Shown here one piece after another: positions 51,791 to 57,931 of a DNA stretch of 64,000 bases. The DNA lies in contig CBDCOX010000002.1 in NCBI GenBank assembly GCA_965219995.1, forward strand, positions 3,584,001 to 3,648,000. The letters are read 5' to 3'. The stretch comes from Candidatus Latescibacterota bacterium (GTDB lineage: Bacteria; Latescibacterota; UBA2968; GCA-2709665). A program made the translations under genes and the position numbers. How positions within the stretch are numbered: the stretch's first letter is position 1; every line of letters begins with the position of its first letter. The notes beneath the pieces are model-generated. The model did no database searches and was not told where the DNA came from. It saw only the letters and a program-made list of their open reading frames with translations.

Positions 51791-52783
51791 ATGGCCCTCA
51801 GGATCTGCAACTGGAAACACGGCAAACAATGGGTCTACTCCATCACGTACGACGAAGCGCTGATCGAGCTGCACGAACGCGCCGTGCCCATCCACGAAGA
51901 ATACAACGTTCCCGGGCATATGGAGGCGGTGGCCGGCCATATCGGCGAGATCCGGAAACTCGGCAACTCGAGCTACAACGGGTTCCGGCATATGACCGGC
52001 GAAGAAATGCGGGAGATGGTGGATCGGGGCTGGGGTGTGGGCAACCACTCATGGAGCCACGAAGTGATCCGTCCGGATATGCTGGACCGGGAGTTGCGCG
52101 AGGCCAGGGACGTGCTGGAAGAGGCCATTGACGGTCCGGTGGACCTCTACTGCTCGCCCGGCAACAACACCAATATGGCGGACCACGTCCTGGCTGCCTG
52201 CCGGGAGTATGGCTATTTGGGCGCGATGAGCCTCACGGATGCCCTCAACCGCCCGGGTGACGAACTCTTCTGGCTGAACCGCACGGCACTGCACGACCAG
52301 TTCTACGAGCCCTTCAACAGCGAGTTCGATCCGTATCGGAACATACGCCACGCGCAGAGAGACAGCGGATGGATCATCGACTATTGCCACTGTCCGCTGG
52401 ATGAGGTCGTCCACCGGAACAAAGACTGCACCGCGGAACAGCTTCGCAGGCGTTTCGAAGCGGTTCTCGGGGAAGGCGGGGACGACGTCTGGTGCGCGGT
52501 TCCGGAAGAAGCCATCTTCTACCACCTGACCCGACGTCACACCGAAGTCACCACCGTGGCGAACGCCGCCGATGAAAAGCGTTATCGGCTGAATGTGAAC
52601 GGACTGTCCGATCGGGTCACCTGCCGCGCGCTGACCCTGGACGCCGACGTGCCCGCGGCCTGGTGCCGGTATCCCCGGATCCGCGTCAACGATCAGCCCA
52701 TGCCCGCCTCGCTCGTCGGTCCGGGCGTCCTGCGAATCACGGTTGACGTCACGGACGGGATGGAGTTGACGTATTCCGCGTAG
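51791..52783 (+). CDS. Polysaccharide deacetylase (NodB/CE4-like)
   Basis: SITYDE, GWGVGNHSWSH, YCSPG, WIIDYCH. Confidence 0.82.
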   Translation: MALRICNWKHGKQWVYSITYDEALIELHERAVPIHEEYNVPGHMEAVAGHIGEIRKLGNSSYNGFRHMTGEEMREMVDRGWGVGNHSWSHEVIRPDMLDRELREARDVLEEAIDGPVDLYCSPGNNTNMADHVLAACREYGYLGAMSLTDALNRPGDELFWLNRTALHDQFYEPFNSEFDPYRNIRHAQRDSGWIIDYCHCPLDEVVHRNKDCTAEQLRRRFEAVLGEGGDDVWCAVPEEAIFYHLTRRHTEVTTVANAADEKRYRLNVNGLSDRVTCRALTLDADVPAAWCRYPRIRVNDQPMPASLVGPGVLRITVDVTDGMELTYSA

Positions 52784-52832
52784 AACCAATCCCGGAACGG
52801 CTTGCTGAAAAGCGACTATAGAGGCCCCGCAA

Positions 52833-53390
52833 ATGGACGGCTTCCCGGGTCACGACCTTCACCTGGAGACGGCGCACCTGAAGCTGCGGCCGTTTGAGGC
52901 GGCGGATTTCGATCTGGCGGTTCCGTATTATCAGGATCCGGACTTCCTGAATGTTATGGAAGGAGAACCGCCCGACGAACCCGTTACCCGGGACTACCTC
53001 GAAGGTGCGGGCAGGGCGATGGCGGCACAGGGGTTCCTGTTCGCGATTGTCGAAAAAGAGTCCGGCCGCACCATCGGTGAAGTGTGTCTGCAGTGGATGA
53101 ATCTGGACCGCGGGAGGATTCCGGGCGAGAAAGTTATGCGCCTGCCGATCGGGATCTGGGACAAGTCGCTGTGGGGTCGCGGGTACGGCAAAGAAGTGGC
53201 GCGTTGTCTGATCACGTATGCGTTTGAAGAACTGAAAATCGATCGCTTCTGTCCGATGGACGTGCGCACGGACAATGCGCGATCGGTAGCGCTGTGGCGC
53301 TCGCTCGGCCTCACCGTCGCGAGGGAAGTGGACGGCGGGAAGGTGCTTGATTTCGAGATCACTCGTGCGGACTACGTGCGGATGGGGTGA
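52833..53390 (+). CDS. GNAT N-acetyltransferase (RimJ/RimL-like)
   Basis: LETAHLKLRPF..WGRGYGKEV..AFEEL..DNARSVALWRSLG. Confidence 0.88.
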   Translation: MDGFPGHDLHLETAHLKLRPFEAADFDLAVPYYQDPDFLNVMEGEPPDEPVTRDYLEGAGRAMAAQGFLFAIVEKESGRTIGEVCLQWMNLDRGRIPGEKVMRLPIGIWDKSLWGRGYGKEVARCLITYAFEELKIDRFCPMDVRTDNARSVALWRSLGLTVAREVDGGKVLDFEITRADYVRMG

Positions 53391-53670
53391 TGAAACCCAC
53401 ATAACCCTTCTCACACAAAGACACAAAGACACGGAGAAAACCAAGAAGGGTCAGGGGACCTTGCTGTTGAGAAAGCCCAGCGGACGCACCAAGATTCTTC
53501 CGCAATCTGAAGTGGTGAACATCTTCGATTGACTTGGCGAGCGGACTATGGGCGGATGGCGTAGAGAAAACCTGAAACCCATTACTCACACAAAGACACA
53601 AAGACACGGAGAAAACCAAGAAGGGTCAGAGGACGTTGCTGGTGAGATGGCCAGGGGGACACACGCCGCT
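53367..53670 (+). repeat. Two approximately 175-bp direct repeats carrying the CTCACACAAAGACAC motif and the GNAT 3' end
   Basis: CTCACACAAAGACACAAAGACACGGAGAAAACCAAGAAGGGTCAG at 53410 and 53585; the last GNAT codons are echoed at 53541-53564. Confidence 0.85.
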
Positions 53671-53705
53671 CCTAACCAGTACATAAGGTCTAAATCAAAT
53701 GCGGT

Positions 53706-54107
53706 CTATGTGATGGTGCCGTTGATAATTCGAGCAATGCCCTCCCTCATTGTTGCAGCGCCAAAGTTCAGTATAAAGCCGAGCTTCAAGTCGGTCAATT
53801 TGAGGTAGGTAAGGACTTGCTTCCGGTGTGCTCTCGTGATTTTCTCAACTGATTTCAACTCCAGGATGACGCGGTCCTCGACGATTATATCCGCGCGAAA
53901 TGCTTCGGAGAATCGCATTCCTTCGAACTCAATTGGTATCGGCACCTGCACCTTAACTTTCATGCCAGCCGTCTGAAGCTGCTTTGCCAGAATCACTTCA
54001 TAGACCGATTCAAGCAAGCCTGGGCCAAGATCCTTATGGAGGCGGACCGCACAATTCACGACCTCTGCACCTATTTCGTTTTCGTTCATCGATCCGAAAT
54101 GTTCCAT
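53706..54107 (-). CDS. GxxExxY protein (PD-(D/E)XK nuclease-like)
   Basis: LGPGLLESVY motif; FRADIIVEDRVILELKS..QVLTYLK..GFILNF. Confidence 0.93.
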   Translation of the reverse strand: MEHFGSMNENEIGAEVVNCAVRLHKDLGPGLLESVYEVILAKQLQTAGMKVKVQVPIPIEFEGMRFSEAFRADIIVEDRVILELKSVEKITRAHRKQVLTYLKLTDLKLGFILNFGAATMREGIARIINGTIT

Positions 54108-54132
54108 GCTTAAAGTGATGGATTCCTCTGGT

Positions 54133-54775
54133 GGTTTTCTTTGTGTCTTTGTGTGAGTTGCCCTAGGCCCCGTCTCCGAGCGTAGTGGTCGATGGTATAA
54201 TGTATTCGTCTCCCGTATTCCGTCTCACTGCCTCTCCTGGTTGCCCGTCTTTGGGTTGTTTCCGGTTTTCTTTGTGTCTTGGTGTCTTTGTGTGAGTAGG
54301 TTTAGCCCTCGTCTCCGAGCGCAGTGGTCGATGGTATAATGTACTCGTCTCCCGTATCTCGCACCTACTTCTCCTGGTTGCCCGTCTTTGGGTTGTTTCC
54401 GGTTTTCTTTGTGTCTTGGTGTCTTTGTGTGAGTAGATTTAGCCCTCGTCTCCGAGCGCAGTGGTCGATGGTATAATGTATTCGTCTCCCGTATTCCGTC
54501 TCACTGCCTCTCCTGGTTGCCCGTCTTTGGGTTGTTTCCGGTTTTCTTTGTGTCTTGGTGTCTTTGTGTGAGTAGGTTTAGCCCTCGTCTCCGAGCGCAG
54601 TGGTCGATGGTATAATGTATTCGTCTCCCGTATTCCGTCTCACTGCCTCTCCTGGTTGCCCGTCTTTGGGTTGTTTCCGGTTTTCTTTGTGTCTTGGTGT
54701 CTTTGTGTGAGTAGGTTTAGCCCTCGTCTCCGAGCGTGGCGATCGAGGGGACAACGTATTCGTCCCCGGGATTGA
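54133..54775 (-). repeat. Tandem array of four 131-139-bp units plus the native gene end
   Basis: GGTTTTCTTTGTGTC begins at 54133, 54264, 54401, 54540 and 54679; units nearly identical. Confidence 0.95.
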
Positions 54776-57695
54776 CGAGGTACGTGTAGCCGCCGCCGAG
54801 ATTCGTGCCTTCCCTGAGTCCGCGGACAATCGTAATATCGCCCGTTGAGACGCCGCCGTTTGTGACGGCCGCGATCCTGTAGCTCGTGTCCATCGGCAGA
54901 TCGTTGATGAAATGGATCGTGCGGCCGACGAGGTCGGGACCGGCCGGCAGGGGCGGATCCAGGTCAACCAGATTGTTCGCCGGGTCGGAAGCATCGATTC
55001 CTGTCACTCTCCCGCGCCATGAGGGACGTTCCGCTGTCAGTTCAACGCCGCCGACAGCGAGAGAGGTGCCGCCGATCATTCGCATCAGCTTCACCTCATC
55101 CCCCGCCAGGCGGATCATGCCAAGGGTGCCGTTGAACCTGATCCCGCCTTCCACTTCGACTTCCATCGGATCCTCACAACTGATCAGGATGTCTGTGCGG
55201 CCATCGACCATCTCTACGGCCACGGCGGCGGCGCTGCAGGCATCCCCGGCGTGGTTCACCTCCAGTTCCCGCGCCCGAGAGATGAGCCGGTTTGTATCGT
55301 AAGGTTCCAGGACGTTGAGAAACCGGCTATGCATCTCTTCGCCCAGCCTGCTCTGGATCAGATACCTGGGCCGCTGCAGCCGCCGCGGCGAATCCCCTGT
55401 GGCGAGCGCCACCTCATCGCAGGGCGTAAGCGCGTGCAGGCGAAGGTGCGGCTCGCAGCCTTCCGGAATTCGTCCGTGGATGTCCTCGATCTTCCAGTCG
55501 ACCCGGTACAGCTTCCGGACTGCCCCGGGGGAGCGTTCCACGTCGTATAGGTACGTGAAGCCGCTCTCCTTGAAGAAGTCCGCGTTCTCGCCGTCCAGCG
55601 TGGCGAACGAAATGTTGGGATCCGCAAAGGTGCCGCCATCCTGACCGACGAGTTCCAGGCTGGCAACACCAGCCGTTTCCGCGGCGCCGTGCCAGGACAG
55701 ACGGTGGTTTCTCCCGCCTCTTGCGCGAAACACATCCAGAACGTAGCTGTTGTCGTCGTCCACATCGACCATGGCGACCGTACGTCGGTAGGTTCGCAGC
55801 CCCTCATAAGCACTGGGCGCATCCACCTGGATCCCGCGCAACGGGGGCTCGACGGCGAAGCACTCGACCTGTCCGCCGGGGCTGTACGCCGATCGGGTAT
55901 CGCCCACCAGCAGCGTATTGTGACTGATCGTATTGGCCGTCCACGCGTGCCGTTTCGGCCAGGTCCCGGTGTATTCCGGGTACCCAAGGTCCGGCATCAT
56001 CGCCACGTTTTTCGCCAGCAGTCCCACGTTGAGCGAATCGTGGTGGGAGTGGCCCTTTCCCTGCCCGTAGTGGATGAAAACTGCGCGGCCGTTTTCCGGT
56101 CGTCCTGTCTGCAACTGCGCCTGCCCGTACCGCCCCAAGTGCTCACTCGTCAGGTTGCCCGATCCCTGTTGACCGACGTTCCGTATCTCACGGATCAGCG
56201 CGTCCGGATCCTCGCGGAAAATGTCATCCTCCAAGCGCAGGGTGGAACCGTGCGCGGAGTGTTCGTGCCAGGCCAGGGCCGCGAAACGCGGGTCCCCGTA
56301 CAATCTGTACGCCTGGACATAGGTCGCGGCATCGCCCTGGCGGCCCCACGCGCCCACGGCGCCGCTGTCCCCGGTGTTCGGCATCATGCCATCCAGGACG
56401 TTCAGCCGGGACTCCACGAGATAAGCCTGTTTGAGCTTCGGGTAATCCTCGACGAGATTGTGTTTCGTGTACTCAGGATACGTGGTCAGAATCTGCGCCA
56501 GTTCCCGCATGTGGCGGGTCCAGATGAGACCGTAACCCCCGCACTCACCGCCCATGCCGTCCCTGTCGAGACCCTCGGTCAATACCCAGGTCACCGGGTC
56601 GTTCTGGGCTGCGTGTTCCCCTGGAAATCCTGGATGGAACAGCCAGTCCAGCCACTCCGGCGTCAATTCGGGATGGTCCAGAGCGATCGCGGCGGTGGCG
56701 AGGGACGTGTGGTTCATGCCCGTGTTGCCGCTGATCCGGCCATCCTTTACAGAGGCAAGCGCCTCCAGCAGCAGATGACTCTGAATATGCCCGCAGATCA
56801 CCGCAATACTGCTTTTGTCCCGCAGGTCATATTCTCCGGCTCTGTCCGAGCAGAAAACCACCAGTTCATCATCGTCCTGGAGGCCGTCGAAGATGACGTC
56901 GTAGCTGCGCGCGAGGACCTGCACGACGAAGGTTTCCCAGATACAACCCTCAATCCGGCCTCTCCCCGAACCGCCCTGGCTGTGCTGAAATCCCAATTCG
57001 TGCAGCGGCAGGTAGTCCATCTCCGGATAGACGTCCGCGATCCGGTCAAGCAGAACGCCCGCCTTGTGGGCGTAGCGCCGGTCATTGGTGAGCGCGTACG
57101 CGTCGGCCAGCGCGGCAACGCCCCGCTGTATCCGACGCCACACGGCTTCGAAATTGTAGTATGCGATGATATCGTGTCGATTGCCCTGTTCGTCGAACAT
57201 GCCGTACCCGTCGTCGACGTGGAGTTCGTGCAGGGGGTCGGACGGATCGGGATGATCGGCATTGAACAGGAGCGACCGGTCGCCCAACTCACGACTGAAC
57301 ATCCCGTGCTCGTCGAGGGCCGACCTGTAGAAGGCCCCGAAGTCGTTCTTCGGGTACACCTCTCCGCAGTGTTCGCACCAGATCTTCCACGGCCTGGCGT
57401 CGTCGAACTCCCACCATTCGCGCCCCGATTTCGCCGGGGCCGTTTCGCCGCATCCGGGGCAATAGGGTTGCTGCCCCTTGTACGTCACCCCTTCGTTGGT
57501 GTAGACCGTCCGCGGCAACTCCTGCGCGGTGACCATCCCCCACAACGCATCGTCAGTGCGGTCGACCCACTCCTCGGCAGCCGCGACCGCCCCATCACGC
57601 CGCTCCCGCGCCCAGTCATATTTTTTCGCATTCGCCACCGCATTCGACCGCATCGACGCGCTGACGAACCGGCTTTGCTTTTTCCCAATTGACAT
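54717..57695 (-). CDS. Heparinase II/III-like protein
   Basis: DGMGGECGGY; GHSHHDSLNVGL..MPDLGYP..TISHNTLLV..YRRTV; N-terminal CPGC..CEHC; ATG 57695 after AGGGG RBS. Confidence 0.8.
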   Translation of the reverse strand: MSIGKKQSRFVSASMRSNAVANAKKYDWARERRDGAVAAAEEWVDRTDDALWGMVTAQELPRTVYTNEGVTYKGQQPYCPGCGETAPAKSGREWWEFDDARPWKIWCEHCGEVYPKNDFGAFYRSALDEHGMFSRELGDRSLLFNADHPDPSDPLHELHVDDGYGMFDEQGNRHDIIAYYNFEAVWRRIQRGVAALADAYALTNDRRYAHKAGVLLDRIADVYPEMDYLPLHELGFQHSQGGSGRGRIEGCIWETFVVQVLARSYDVIFDGLQDDDELVVFCSDRAGEYDLRDKSSIAVICGHIQSHLLLEALASVKDGRISGNTGMNHTSLATAAIALDHPELTPEWLDWLFHPGFPGEHAAQNDPVTWVLTEGLDRDGMGGECGGYGLIWTRHMRELAQILTTYPEYTKHNLVEDYPKLKQAYLVESRLNVLDGMMPNTGDSGAVGAWGRQGDAATYVQAYRLYGDPRFAALAWHEHSAHGSTLRLEDDIFREDPDALIREIRNVGQQGSGNLTSEHLGRYGQAQLQTGRPENGRAVFIHYGQGKGHSHHDSLNVGLLAKNVAMMPDLGYPEYTGTWPKRHAWTANTISHNTLLVGDTRSAYSPGGQVECFAVEPPLRGIQVDAPSAYEGLRTYRRTVAMVDVDDDNSYVLDVFRARGGRNHRLSWHGAAETAGVASLELVGQDGGTFADPNISFATLDGENADFFKESGFTYLYDVERSPGAVRKLYRVDWKIEDIHGRIPEGCEPHLRLHALTPCDEVALATGDSPRRLQRPRYLIQSRLGEEMHSRFLNVLEPYDTNRLISRARELEVNHAGDACSAAAVAVEMVDGRTDILISCEDPMEVEVEGGIRFNGTLGMIRLAGDEVKLMRMIGGTSLAVGGVELTAERPSWRGRVTGIDASDPANNLVDLDPPLPAGPDLVGRTIHFINDLPMDTSYRIAAVTNGGVSTGDITIVRGLREGTNLGGGYTYLVNPGDEYVVPSIATLGDEG

Positions 57696-57931
57696 TCTAT
57701 TCACCCCTTTCAACACAAAACTCCGGGTCGAATTCCAGGATATGTCCACGATTCTAATCTTGTTTATATTTCAGGCATTCCGCAACTGCTAAACATCCGG
57801 GTGGGCGTGCGACGCGTCGTGGGTTCCGGGTTGAAATCTCTGCGACAGAGGTTATATTACGCGAGGCGTGCACCATTCAAGGCGCCGGGAAAGGCCGGAA
57901 TTCACGAGCTATACATACGGAGGGGATTACA

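Follow-up and report, generated by a model that had tools for sequence, protein, structure and literature searches.

We analysed a 64,000-nt stretch of the genome of a Candidatus Latescibacterota bacterium (assembly GCA_965219995.1, contig CBDCOX010000002.1, positions 3,584,001 to 3,648,000; hereafter the window), in which a gene for a nuclease-like protein of the GxxExxY (PDDEXK_3) family lies between two converging genes, coding for a GNAT acetyltransferase and a heparinase II/III-like protein. The GxxExxY gene is enclosed by inverted arrays of short phased words, which we call arms, and the units carrying these arms also contain diverged copies of the 3' ends of both neighbouring genes. The cassette-plus-arms arrangement is real and widespread, and apparently undescribed in print. 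We consider it probable (roughly 60%) that the locus derives from one cassette of family-typical layout and from old duplications across the stop codons of its neighbours, followed by unequal recombination and gene conversion between the arm units.

Arms around GxxExxY genes in many phyla

Seventy-eight loci with GxxExxY relatives at 34-95% identity were compared, from Latescibacterota, Chloroflexi, Verrucomicrobia, Planctomycetes, Proteobacteria, Acidobacteria, Gemmatimonadota, Bacteroidota and other phyla. Four of these loci are from Latescibacterota, three of them from the genus of the window (L013 = G001, L014 = G004, L020 = G007; L numbers are fetched loci, G000 is the genome of the window and the other G numbers are relatives in the genus). 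Arrays were defined as at least two CRCNNAG words spaced 8-10 nt and were looked for in segments of 230 nt. Upstream of the gene, an array was found on the same strand in 44/77 loci and on the opposite strand in 14/77; downstream of the gene, the same strand carried one in 20/77 loci and the opposite strand in 43/77. The control segments gave 1/70 (same strand) and 3/70 (opposite strand) for the far upstream flank, 0/66 on both strands for the far downstream flank, and 0/78 and 1/78, respectively, for the coding sequence.

Inspected by eye, the upstream arrays start with a 'CTCAC' lead, followed by CACAAAG, CGCGGAG or CGCCAAG-like words every 8-9 nt. The arms could be aligned as inverted repeats in 40 of 60 loci, and the inner pair of arms in the window matches this layout, one being upstream of the gene on the same strand and the other downstream and inverted (Table 1). 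Enclosure of the gene by inverted motifs, as described in the first-pass annotation of the window, is typical of GxxExxY loci in many phyla. The closest relatives outside the Latescibacterota are from Chloroflexi (66-73% protein identity); three of the four loci (L016-L018) share CACAAAG-type words, and palindromic arm doublets stand beside the GxxExxY genes of the same three. At the first of these, from Anaerolineae (L016:1400-2030), a cassette with palindromic arm doublets on each side fills the stop-to-start gap in front of a gyrA-like gene, as judged by eye.

A same-strand array was present within 260 nt upstream of the gene in 46 loci. In 26 of these a co-directional open reading frame (ORF) of at least 90 codons ends no more than 30 nt before the first word, and in 33 no more than 100 nt before it. 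The chance level for this adjacency is 7.2% of the positions in these loci; the binomial p value of 3e-18 is overstated, as the loci are not independent. The cassettes are located directly behind stop codons far above chance, in agreement with the earlier proposal that gene ends are targeted; an identical pattern would arise if insertions elsewhere were selected against.

Arm-bearing units are often tandemly amplified beside GxxExxY genes. A screen of 1002 ORF ends in 89 loci confirmed copies of neighbour-gene ends only in the genus of the window, the high scores at L018 and L066 being uninspected. Other high scores came from ORFs inside arrays or from the GxxExxY gene's own end; this was checked by eye for L022, where that end is duplicated. 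In L022 (positions 640-985) a second cassette, made of the arms and the first and last codons only, stands in tandem behind an intact GxxExxY gene, and is a miniature, internally deleted derivative. Of the two features anticipated for other GxxExxY loci, flanking motifs proved to be common, and duplicated neighbour ends were confirmed in this genus alone.

The GxxExxY gene is single-copy in the genome of the window. It is the only ORF between the arms and matched PF13366 (PDDEXK_3) alone, at 133.6 bits (cut-off 22; profile positions 2-117 of 117); the TIGR04256 (GxxExxY) profile matched at 132.3 bits (cut-off 35). In the relatives translation starts at the second ATG (MNENEI). Both the G-x-x-E-x-x-Y motif and the D...E-x-K signature of PD-(D/E)XK enzymes are present: the protein keeps all the residues that show full or nearly full conservation among 34 and 57 aligned relatives (G30, E33, Y36, D73, E83-x-K85 and Q97), and those of the motif and signature are conserved there to at least 90%. 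The AlphaFold2 model of the protein (pLDDT 93.4, pTM 0.87) gave top Foldseek matches that were all PD-(D/E)XK nucleases, namely Cas4 SSO0001 (4ic1), archaeal Hjc (2wiw), CinB and lambda exonuclease, although the matches were weak (best E 2e-3, TM 0.4-0.58). A sequence search of the PDB found no relative of the protein. In a 2012 survey of the superfamily, the function of GxxExxY/PDDEXK_3 is given as 'Unknown' (PMC3424549). The literature on GxxExxY, PDDEXK_3, PF13366 and TIGR04256 (supplements excluded) yielded incidental mentions and no account of the biology of the family.

Repeat units and gene-end copies at the locus

The features of the locus are listed in Table 1. The spacer between the two converging genes (53391-54716) contains, according to the ORF list, no long ORF besides the GxxExxY gene and consequently no integrase or recombinase gene.

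Table 1. Genes, arms and gene-end copies at the GxxExxY locus (positions in the window).
Feature	Position	Strand	Remarks
GNAT acetyltransferase gene	52833-53390	+	PF13302 at 3.6e-21; ORF list; real end ...ADYVRMG*; stop 53388-53390
Outer left arm (33-nt motif, three 8-nt phased words)	53410-53442	+	starts 19 nt past the GNAT stop
Diverged GNAT-end copy, ADYGRMA*	53541-53564	+	last 8 GNAT codons with stop; direct reading
Inner left arm (inverted downstream arm of the cassette)	53585-53617	+	motif match; layout across loci
GxxExxY / PDDEXK_3 gene, 133 aa	53706-54107	-	PF13366 and TIGR04256 profiles
Inner right arm, one word shorter (upstream same-strand arm of the cassette)	54133-54157	-	about 25 nt before the start codon
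Four heparinase-end copies (last 54-57 nt)	about 54163-54219, 54302-54358, 54439-54495, 54578-54634	-	each followed by a 5-nt lead and an arm
Four full right arms	54264-54296, 54401-54433, 54540-54572, 54679-54711	-	motif match; Tandem Repeats Finder; outermost starts 5 nt after the heparinase stop
Heparinase II/III-like gene	54717-57749	-	PF07940 at 2e-11; stop 54717-54719

The core pattern of the motif matched seven times in the window, against 0.00 matches expected (100 shuffles). The 33-nt motif is built from 2.5-3 tandem 8-nt words, and its plus- and minus-strand versions differ at 3 of 33 positions. Direct reading confirmed the coordinates of the first-pass annotation, its distances of 19 and 5 nt from the stop codons and all its peptide readings: the motif occurs twice on the plus strand and four times plus one shortened copy on the minus strand, and the inner copies are preceded by the altered GNAT end (ADYGRMA* for ADYVRMG*) or by duplicates of the heparinase end with a stop codon. 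It is also true that all arms point inward, but this geometry also follows from the fact that each arm has the direction of the converging gene that precedes it.

For the right array, Tandem Repeats Finder gave a period of 139 bp, 4.6 copies and 92% matches (54138-54768). On the left side there is a direct duplication of 175 nt, present about 1.5 times, with 63 nt at 95% identity. Both repeat structures begin inside the flanking ORFs, and the order is the same on both flanks: gene end, arm, spacer, gene-end copy, arm. Four parts make up each right-hand unit, namely a 5-nt lead, an arm, about 44 nt of spacer, and a copy of the terminal 54-57 nt of the heparinase gene with its stop codon; the first part of the spacer that follows each full right arm belongs to a dispersed repeat. 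Right units 1-3 show 99-100% identity along their full length, and the fourth unit shows 94.5%. The arm-spacer sequence of the array is unlike the other copies in the genome, the next best being 90% identical over 61 nt. Self-comparison of the 24 arm loci of the genome identified tandem arm units at two other places (about 3136570-3136751 and 4721937-4722128), both free of gene ends.

The real heparinase end is translated as PGDEYVVPSIATLGDEG*, three of the copies as TGDEYIIPSTTALGDEG* and one as ..TTTLGDGA*. Each copy differs from the real end by 11-13 mismatches in 54 nt. The three upstream copies (at 54296, 54433 and 54572) match the real end perfectly over the final 20 nt, their mismatches being confined to the first 34 nt; over the same final 20 nt the innermost copy shows 3 mismatches. 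The last seven or so codons of the heparinase gene are inside the zone that is homogenised with the repeat units. The changes in the copies are biased, with 8 from GC to AT and 2-3 from AT to GC; because this decay is AT-biased, the copies behave as dead ends, decaying towards AT. Units 1-3 are nearly identical to each other, but their heparinase-end copy departs from the real end at 11 positions in 54, which indicates that the recent gains copied whole units and not the target. All gene-end copies lie between the host gene and the cassette, and not on both sides of the cassette.

The locus in the genus and arms without the gene

The GNAT/heparinase gene pair is conserved across the genus, and in 13 of 14 genus loci the heparinase stop is followed, 5-6 nt on, by an arm, the sequence of G004 being unreadable there (masked bases). 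At four loci (G006, G009, G011 and G014) the site is 'empty', the gap of about 100 nt between the two genes consisting of that arm and half a hairpin. G000, G001, G004 and G007 carry the cassette, and G010, G002, G005, G008, G012 and G013 have other dispersed repeats in the spacer instead. As the arm is present in 13/13 readable loci, including the four empty sites, the heparinase-side arm is ancestral to the genus, and its 'inward' orientation is simply that of the gene that it follows. Empty GNAT/heparinase sites, which the first-pass annotation had proposed to look for in relatives, do exist, but they still carry the heparinase-side arm.

Copies of the heparinase end number four in G000, one in G001, one in G010 and one in G007 (recognisable over about 25-47 nt). 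G004 has one copy of at least 110 nt, joined at a point where the gene and a repeat module share a short similarity. In G013 (L091, G013:C1:1064800-1069800) a copy of about 250-267 nt is located 2.2 kb downstream, beyond a converging gene for a yihY-like membrane protein (named by eye). The copies in G004 and G013, which differ in length and are independent, suggest that the heparinase gene end is a recombination hot spot. A heparinase-end copy was found in all four cassette-bearing genomes and in two of the ten without cassette; the genomes are kin, and this comparison represents few independent events. The GNAT end was copied once in G000, twice in G001 and not in G007. The arm copies on the right side number five in G000 (four full units and the shortened cassette arm) and two each in G001, G010 and G007, and there are 2, 3, 0 and 1 left units in G000, G001, G010 and G007, respectively. 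Between G000, G010 and G001 the arm-spacer part can be aligned with hardly any mismatch, so that at least one unit predates their split.

The locus of G013 looks like a hybrid of two arrangements, the membrane-protein gene being the direct neighbour of the heparinase gene in G008, and the G013 heparinase gene appears to be split near residue 175. Of the GNAT gene of G005 (L004) only about the first dozen codons remain, joined to the sequence that follows the GNAT gene; the GNAT match of G009 (L006) is broken in two, which suggests a frameshift.

The last seven or so residues of the heparinase protein differ in almost every member of the genus, following a conserved VNPGDEYVVP. In G010 the real GNAT end, EDYGRMT* (then gaaaacctgaaa), resembles the copy ADYGRMA* of G000 (then agaaaacctgaaa). 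The heparinase copy of G010 ends like the real gene of G000 (...GGAGACGAGGGCTAA), and the gene of G010 itself ends GDTD*. Judged from these sequences, the tails of G010 and G000 point to exchange between versions. Alternative C-termini had been suggested at first pass; real tails do appear to have been exchanged with downstream copies between lineages.

The motif also occurs without the gene. The motif-family pattern matched 32 times in the genome of the window, and 26 of these matches were outside the locus, at about 23 places. Nineteen of the 26 are co-directional with the gene upstream and 13 are within 80 nt of its stop codon. The dispersed copies have a different lead, and many are followed by a GC-rich hairpin, GGGCAACC-ACAA-GGGTTGCCC. 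At the other motif loci of this genome the arms are in a single orientation only. Members of the genus have 0-4 GxxExxY matches each; in G009 and G003 (97% and 92% complete) no GxxExxY match was found, yet these genomes gave 26 and 20 motif matches. Four relatives gave 20-45 motif matches each, against 0 for a reversed control pattern. The arms persist in the absence of a resident GxxExxY gene, and the motif is dispersed independently of GxxExxY in this genome and in its relatives, an observation that the first-pass annotation had itself named as contrary to its proposal. Its picture of a 'minimal' element, in which motif and gene move together, does not hold, as 26 of the 32 motif matches lie elsewhere and the motif persists in genomes with no detected gene.

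One site with presence and absence of an arm was compared in six genomes. Each had a different combination of dispersed repeats, and neither a target duplication nor a clean insertion footprint was found at this site. The intergenic regions of the genus are mosaics of several dispersed repeat families, for example at G000:C2 4020990-4021240 (L094), at 53443-53540 of the window and in the spacers of relatives. These families include a GAGACG-rich repeat of about 125 nt (dozens of copies per genome), the GGGCAACC-ACAA-GGGTTGCCC hairpin and runs of CAGCNNTCAGC. In G010 (C1, about 2.5-5.7 Mb) the arm matches cluster, with about 20 of 45 within 3.24-3.51 Mb; their strand changes from minus to plus near 3.3 Mb, as if tracking gene or replication direction around one landmark.

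The genomes of the genus have about 9-13 matches each to the heparinase II/III-like protein (matches are not equal to copy numbers), and the DNA of the locus was found mainly in sponge-metagenome runs. Both observations fit a polysaccharide-degrading sponge associate. No RNA run was among the sequencing runs listed for the locus DNA.

Origin of the gene-end copies and comparison with known systems

The cassette has phased 8-nt words (CTCAC, then RCRC-RRAG units) arrayed upstream on the gene strand and an inverted array downstream, and it follows the stop codon of a host gene of the same direction, in this case the heparinase gene. The same arm also exists as a gene-less dispersed repeat, mostly just behind the stops of other genes. 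We propose that the founding event was an old direct duplication spanning each stop codon, and not separate captures by a transposing element. Units would then have been gained and lost by unequal recombination. Gene conversion would keep the arm-proximal sequence uniform, including the last 20 nt or so of the real gene, leaving the rest of each copy free to decay with an AT bias, and an occasional swap of the version attached to the ORF may turn over the last few residues. We infer that the predicted nuclease acts on the arms, where breaks or mispairing would raise the local duplication rate; the arm, or nuclease breaks at the arm, is the obvious candidate cause of the hot spot.

Concerted evolution proceeds by tandem duplication, followed by unequal crossing-over and gene conversion. 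The locus resembles such cases in its head-to-tail units, in a copy number that varies between close relatives, in an identity that is higher within than between genomes and in the diverged edge of the array. It differs from them in that the unit boundary is inside two ORFs, so that the homogenised zone includes the last codons of functional genes, and in that the units carry the arm of a nuclease cassette.

Several points weigh against this explanation. The first duplication could equally have been an insertion-linked long target duplication. Gene-end units on both flanks of one intergenic region would be a coincidence if duplication occurred purely by chance. The distribution of heparinase-end copies (4/4 genomes with the cassette, 2/10 without) is suggestive of the cassette, or its nuclease, making the copies. 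None of the Foldseek matches reached an E value of 1e-3 or lower, the best being 2e-3, and the genome-wide census of dispersed arms used our own crude ORF calls as gene calls.

A broader scenario, which we regard as possible though rather doubtful, is that GxxExxY cassettes in general are a hitherto undescribed class of selfish elements driven by a PD-(D/E)XK nuclease recognising the phased-word arrays. Such elements would land behind stop codons and be co-transcribed with the host gene; break repair would duplicate and rewrite the last codons, and solo arms would be footprints and hot spots that remodel C-termini.

Also rather doubtful is capture driven by the element, in which arm elements, with or without the nuclease gene, would insert after stop codons and duplicate tens of target bases, the array being the record of repeated insertions. 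The adjacency of cassettes to stops far above chance, the heparinase-end copy in all four cassette-bearing members of the genus and the same unit order on both flanks would be accounted for. However, insertion of this kind does not explain why the copies are only on the host-gene side of the cassette, nor the recent gains, which copied whole units (99-100% identity among units 1-3, against 11 differences in 54 nt from the real end). The arm-spacer of the array is also unlike the other copies in the genome (next best 90% over 61 nt), neighbour-end copies were confirmed in this genus only (1002 ORF ends in 89 loci; L018 and L066 unchecked), and the one presence/absence site compared in six genomes showed no target duplication. 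The selfish or array-building element of the first-pass annotation, amplifying units of gene end and motif, stands as far as the arms, the position at gene ends and the tandem amplification are concerned, but the motif is independent of the gene and capture was confirmed in this genus only.

A role of the arms as host RNA elements in 3' untranslated regions, where they would serve termination, processing or stability, is unlikely; the gene would then just happen to lie in such a region and the duplications would be incidental. This would agree with the strand bias of the dispersed copies (19/26 co-directional, 13/26 within 80 nt of a stop), with the conservation of the arm behind the heparinase stop across the genus, with the persistence of arms in genomes lacking any detected GxxExxY gene and with the hairpin that follows many copies. 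A host-specific untranslated region does not explain inverted arrays on both sides of GxxExxY genes in many unrelated phyla, and a scan of 52500-55500 against Rfam, with E up to 1, gave no match. Among the arm mismatches of 40 loci, G:U (108) was not in excess over A:C (122; p 0.39), so that no sign of a selected sense-strand stem was seen, although the test is weak, as words may align out of register. The absence of an Rfam match and of a wobble-pair asymmetry between the strands of the arms also speaks against the guide-like RNAs proposed at first pass.

Diversity-generating retroelements have a near-copy of a gene 3' end close to the gene. Programmed variation of C-termini of this type, or a guide-RNA array, is very improbable here. 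Near-copies of the gene 3' end do adjoin the gene, the copy has A at 7 of 11 mismatches and the C-terminal tails differ between relatives; but 4 of the 11 differences are not at adenines, the GNAT pair has no such pattern, and the bias is that of a general GC-to-AT decay. No reverse transcriptase was found among the ORFs of 50.5-58 kb (five ORFs scanned with profiles; the genome was not searched), and the copies are several, in tandem, with stop codons, no start codon and no match to an RNA family. The mismatch pattern, together with the missing reverse transcriptase in the locus, led us to reject a reading of the retroelement type.

Mis-assembly of the tandem units is highly improbable. In its favour, such repeats are prone to assembly errors, and no listed short-read contig spans the whole stretch. 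It is opposed by a genome in 2 contigs, by orthologous units in the independent assemblies G001, G010, G007 and G004, and by a depth of 2.4-3.4 times that of the flanks for pieces of the right array (in a short-read run containing 0.89 of the words, which may be the source sample; this depth fits a multi-copy array and is no independent support). A sponge-metagenome contig of 5883 nt lacks the left unit of 175 nt, and also 469 nt of the right array; it may represent a strain with fewer units or a collapsed short-read assembly, and was not used as evidence.

Among known systems, the locus is similar in layout to REP (repetitive extragenic palindrome) and REPIN sequences with their single-copy RAYT gene (PMC3116915, PMC3337134). 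The likeness lies in a single-copy gene between inverted short repeats, in more numerous gene-less extragenic copies, of which 26 further matches at about 23 loci were found here, and in persistence within a lineage. RAYT is an HUH/Y1 (IS200/IS605-like) transposase, REP is a palindrome and REPIN are inverted doublets, whereas here the enzyme has a probable PD-(D/E)XK fold, phased 8-nt words make up the arms and the gene-less copies are solo and strand-biased behind stops. By enzyme, arm type and solo copies, the locus is not a member of the REP/REPIN-RAYT system, and its mobility is putative. The ORF-bearing intervening sequences of 23S rRNA, as presented in a study of Coxiella burnetii (PMC4990558), are similar in having a small, selfish-looking ORF within inverted sequence, co-transcribed with the host gene; in that account they belong to rRNA and to the S23p family, whereas the present locus lies outside rRNA, and the wobble-pair test showed no trace of a selected RNA stem. 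An integrase-type island at a gene 3' end, with its att duplication, would have an integrase gene, which the spacer lacks.

GxxExxY/PDDEXK_3 proteins form a large family across many bacterial phyla, for which this locus and its relatives give a reproducible genomic context: inverted phased-word arms, a position behind stop codons and many gene-less copies of the arm. Within one genus of sponge-associated Latescibacterota there is a natural series of empty, occupied and amplified sites, which makes it testable whether the arms are the substrate of the nuclease and whether the element raises local rates of duplication and conversion. The locus also illustrates how the ends of functional genes can become part of repeat arrays, with turnover of the C-terminal tails of the proteins; the gene-end copies are best explained by local duplication and concerted evolution at an arm-bearing recombination hot spot, the turnover of the tails being a side effect.

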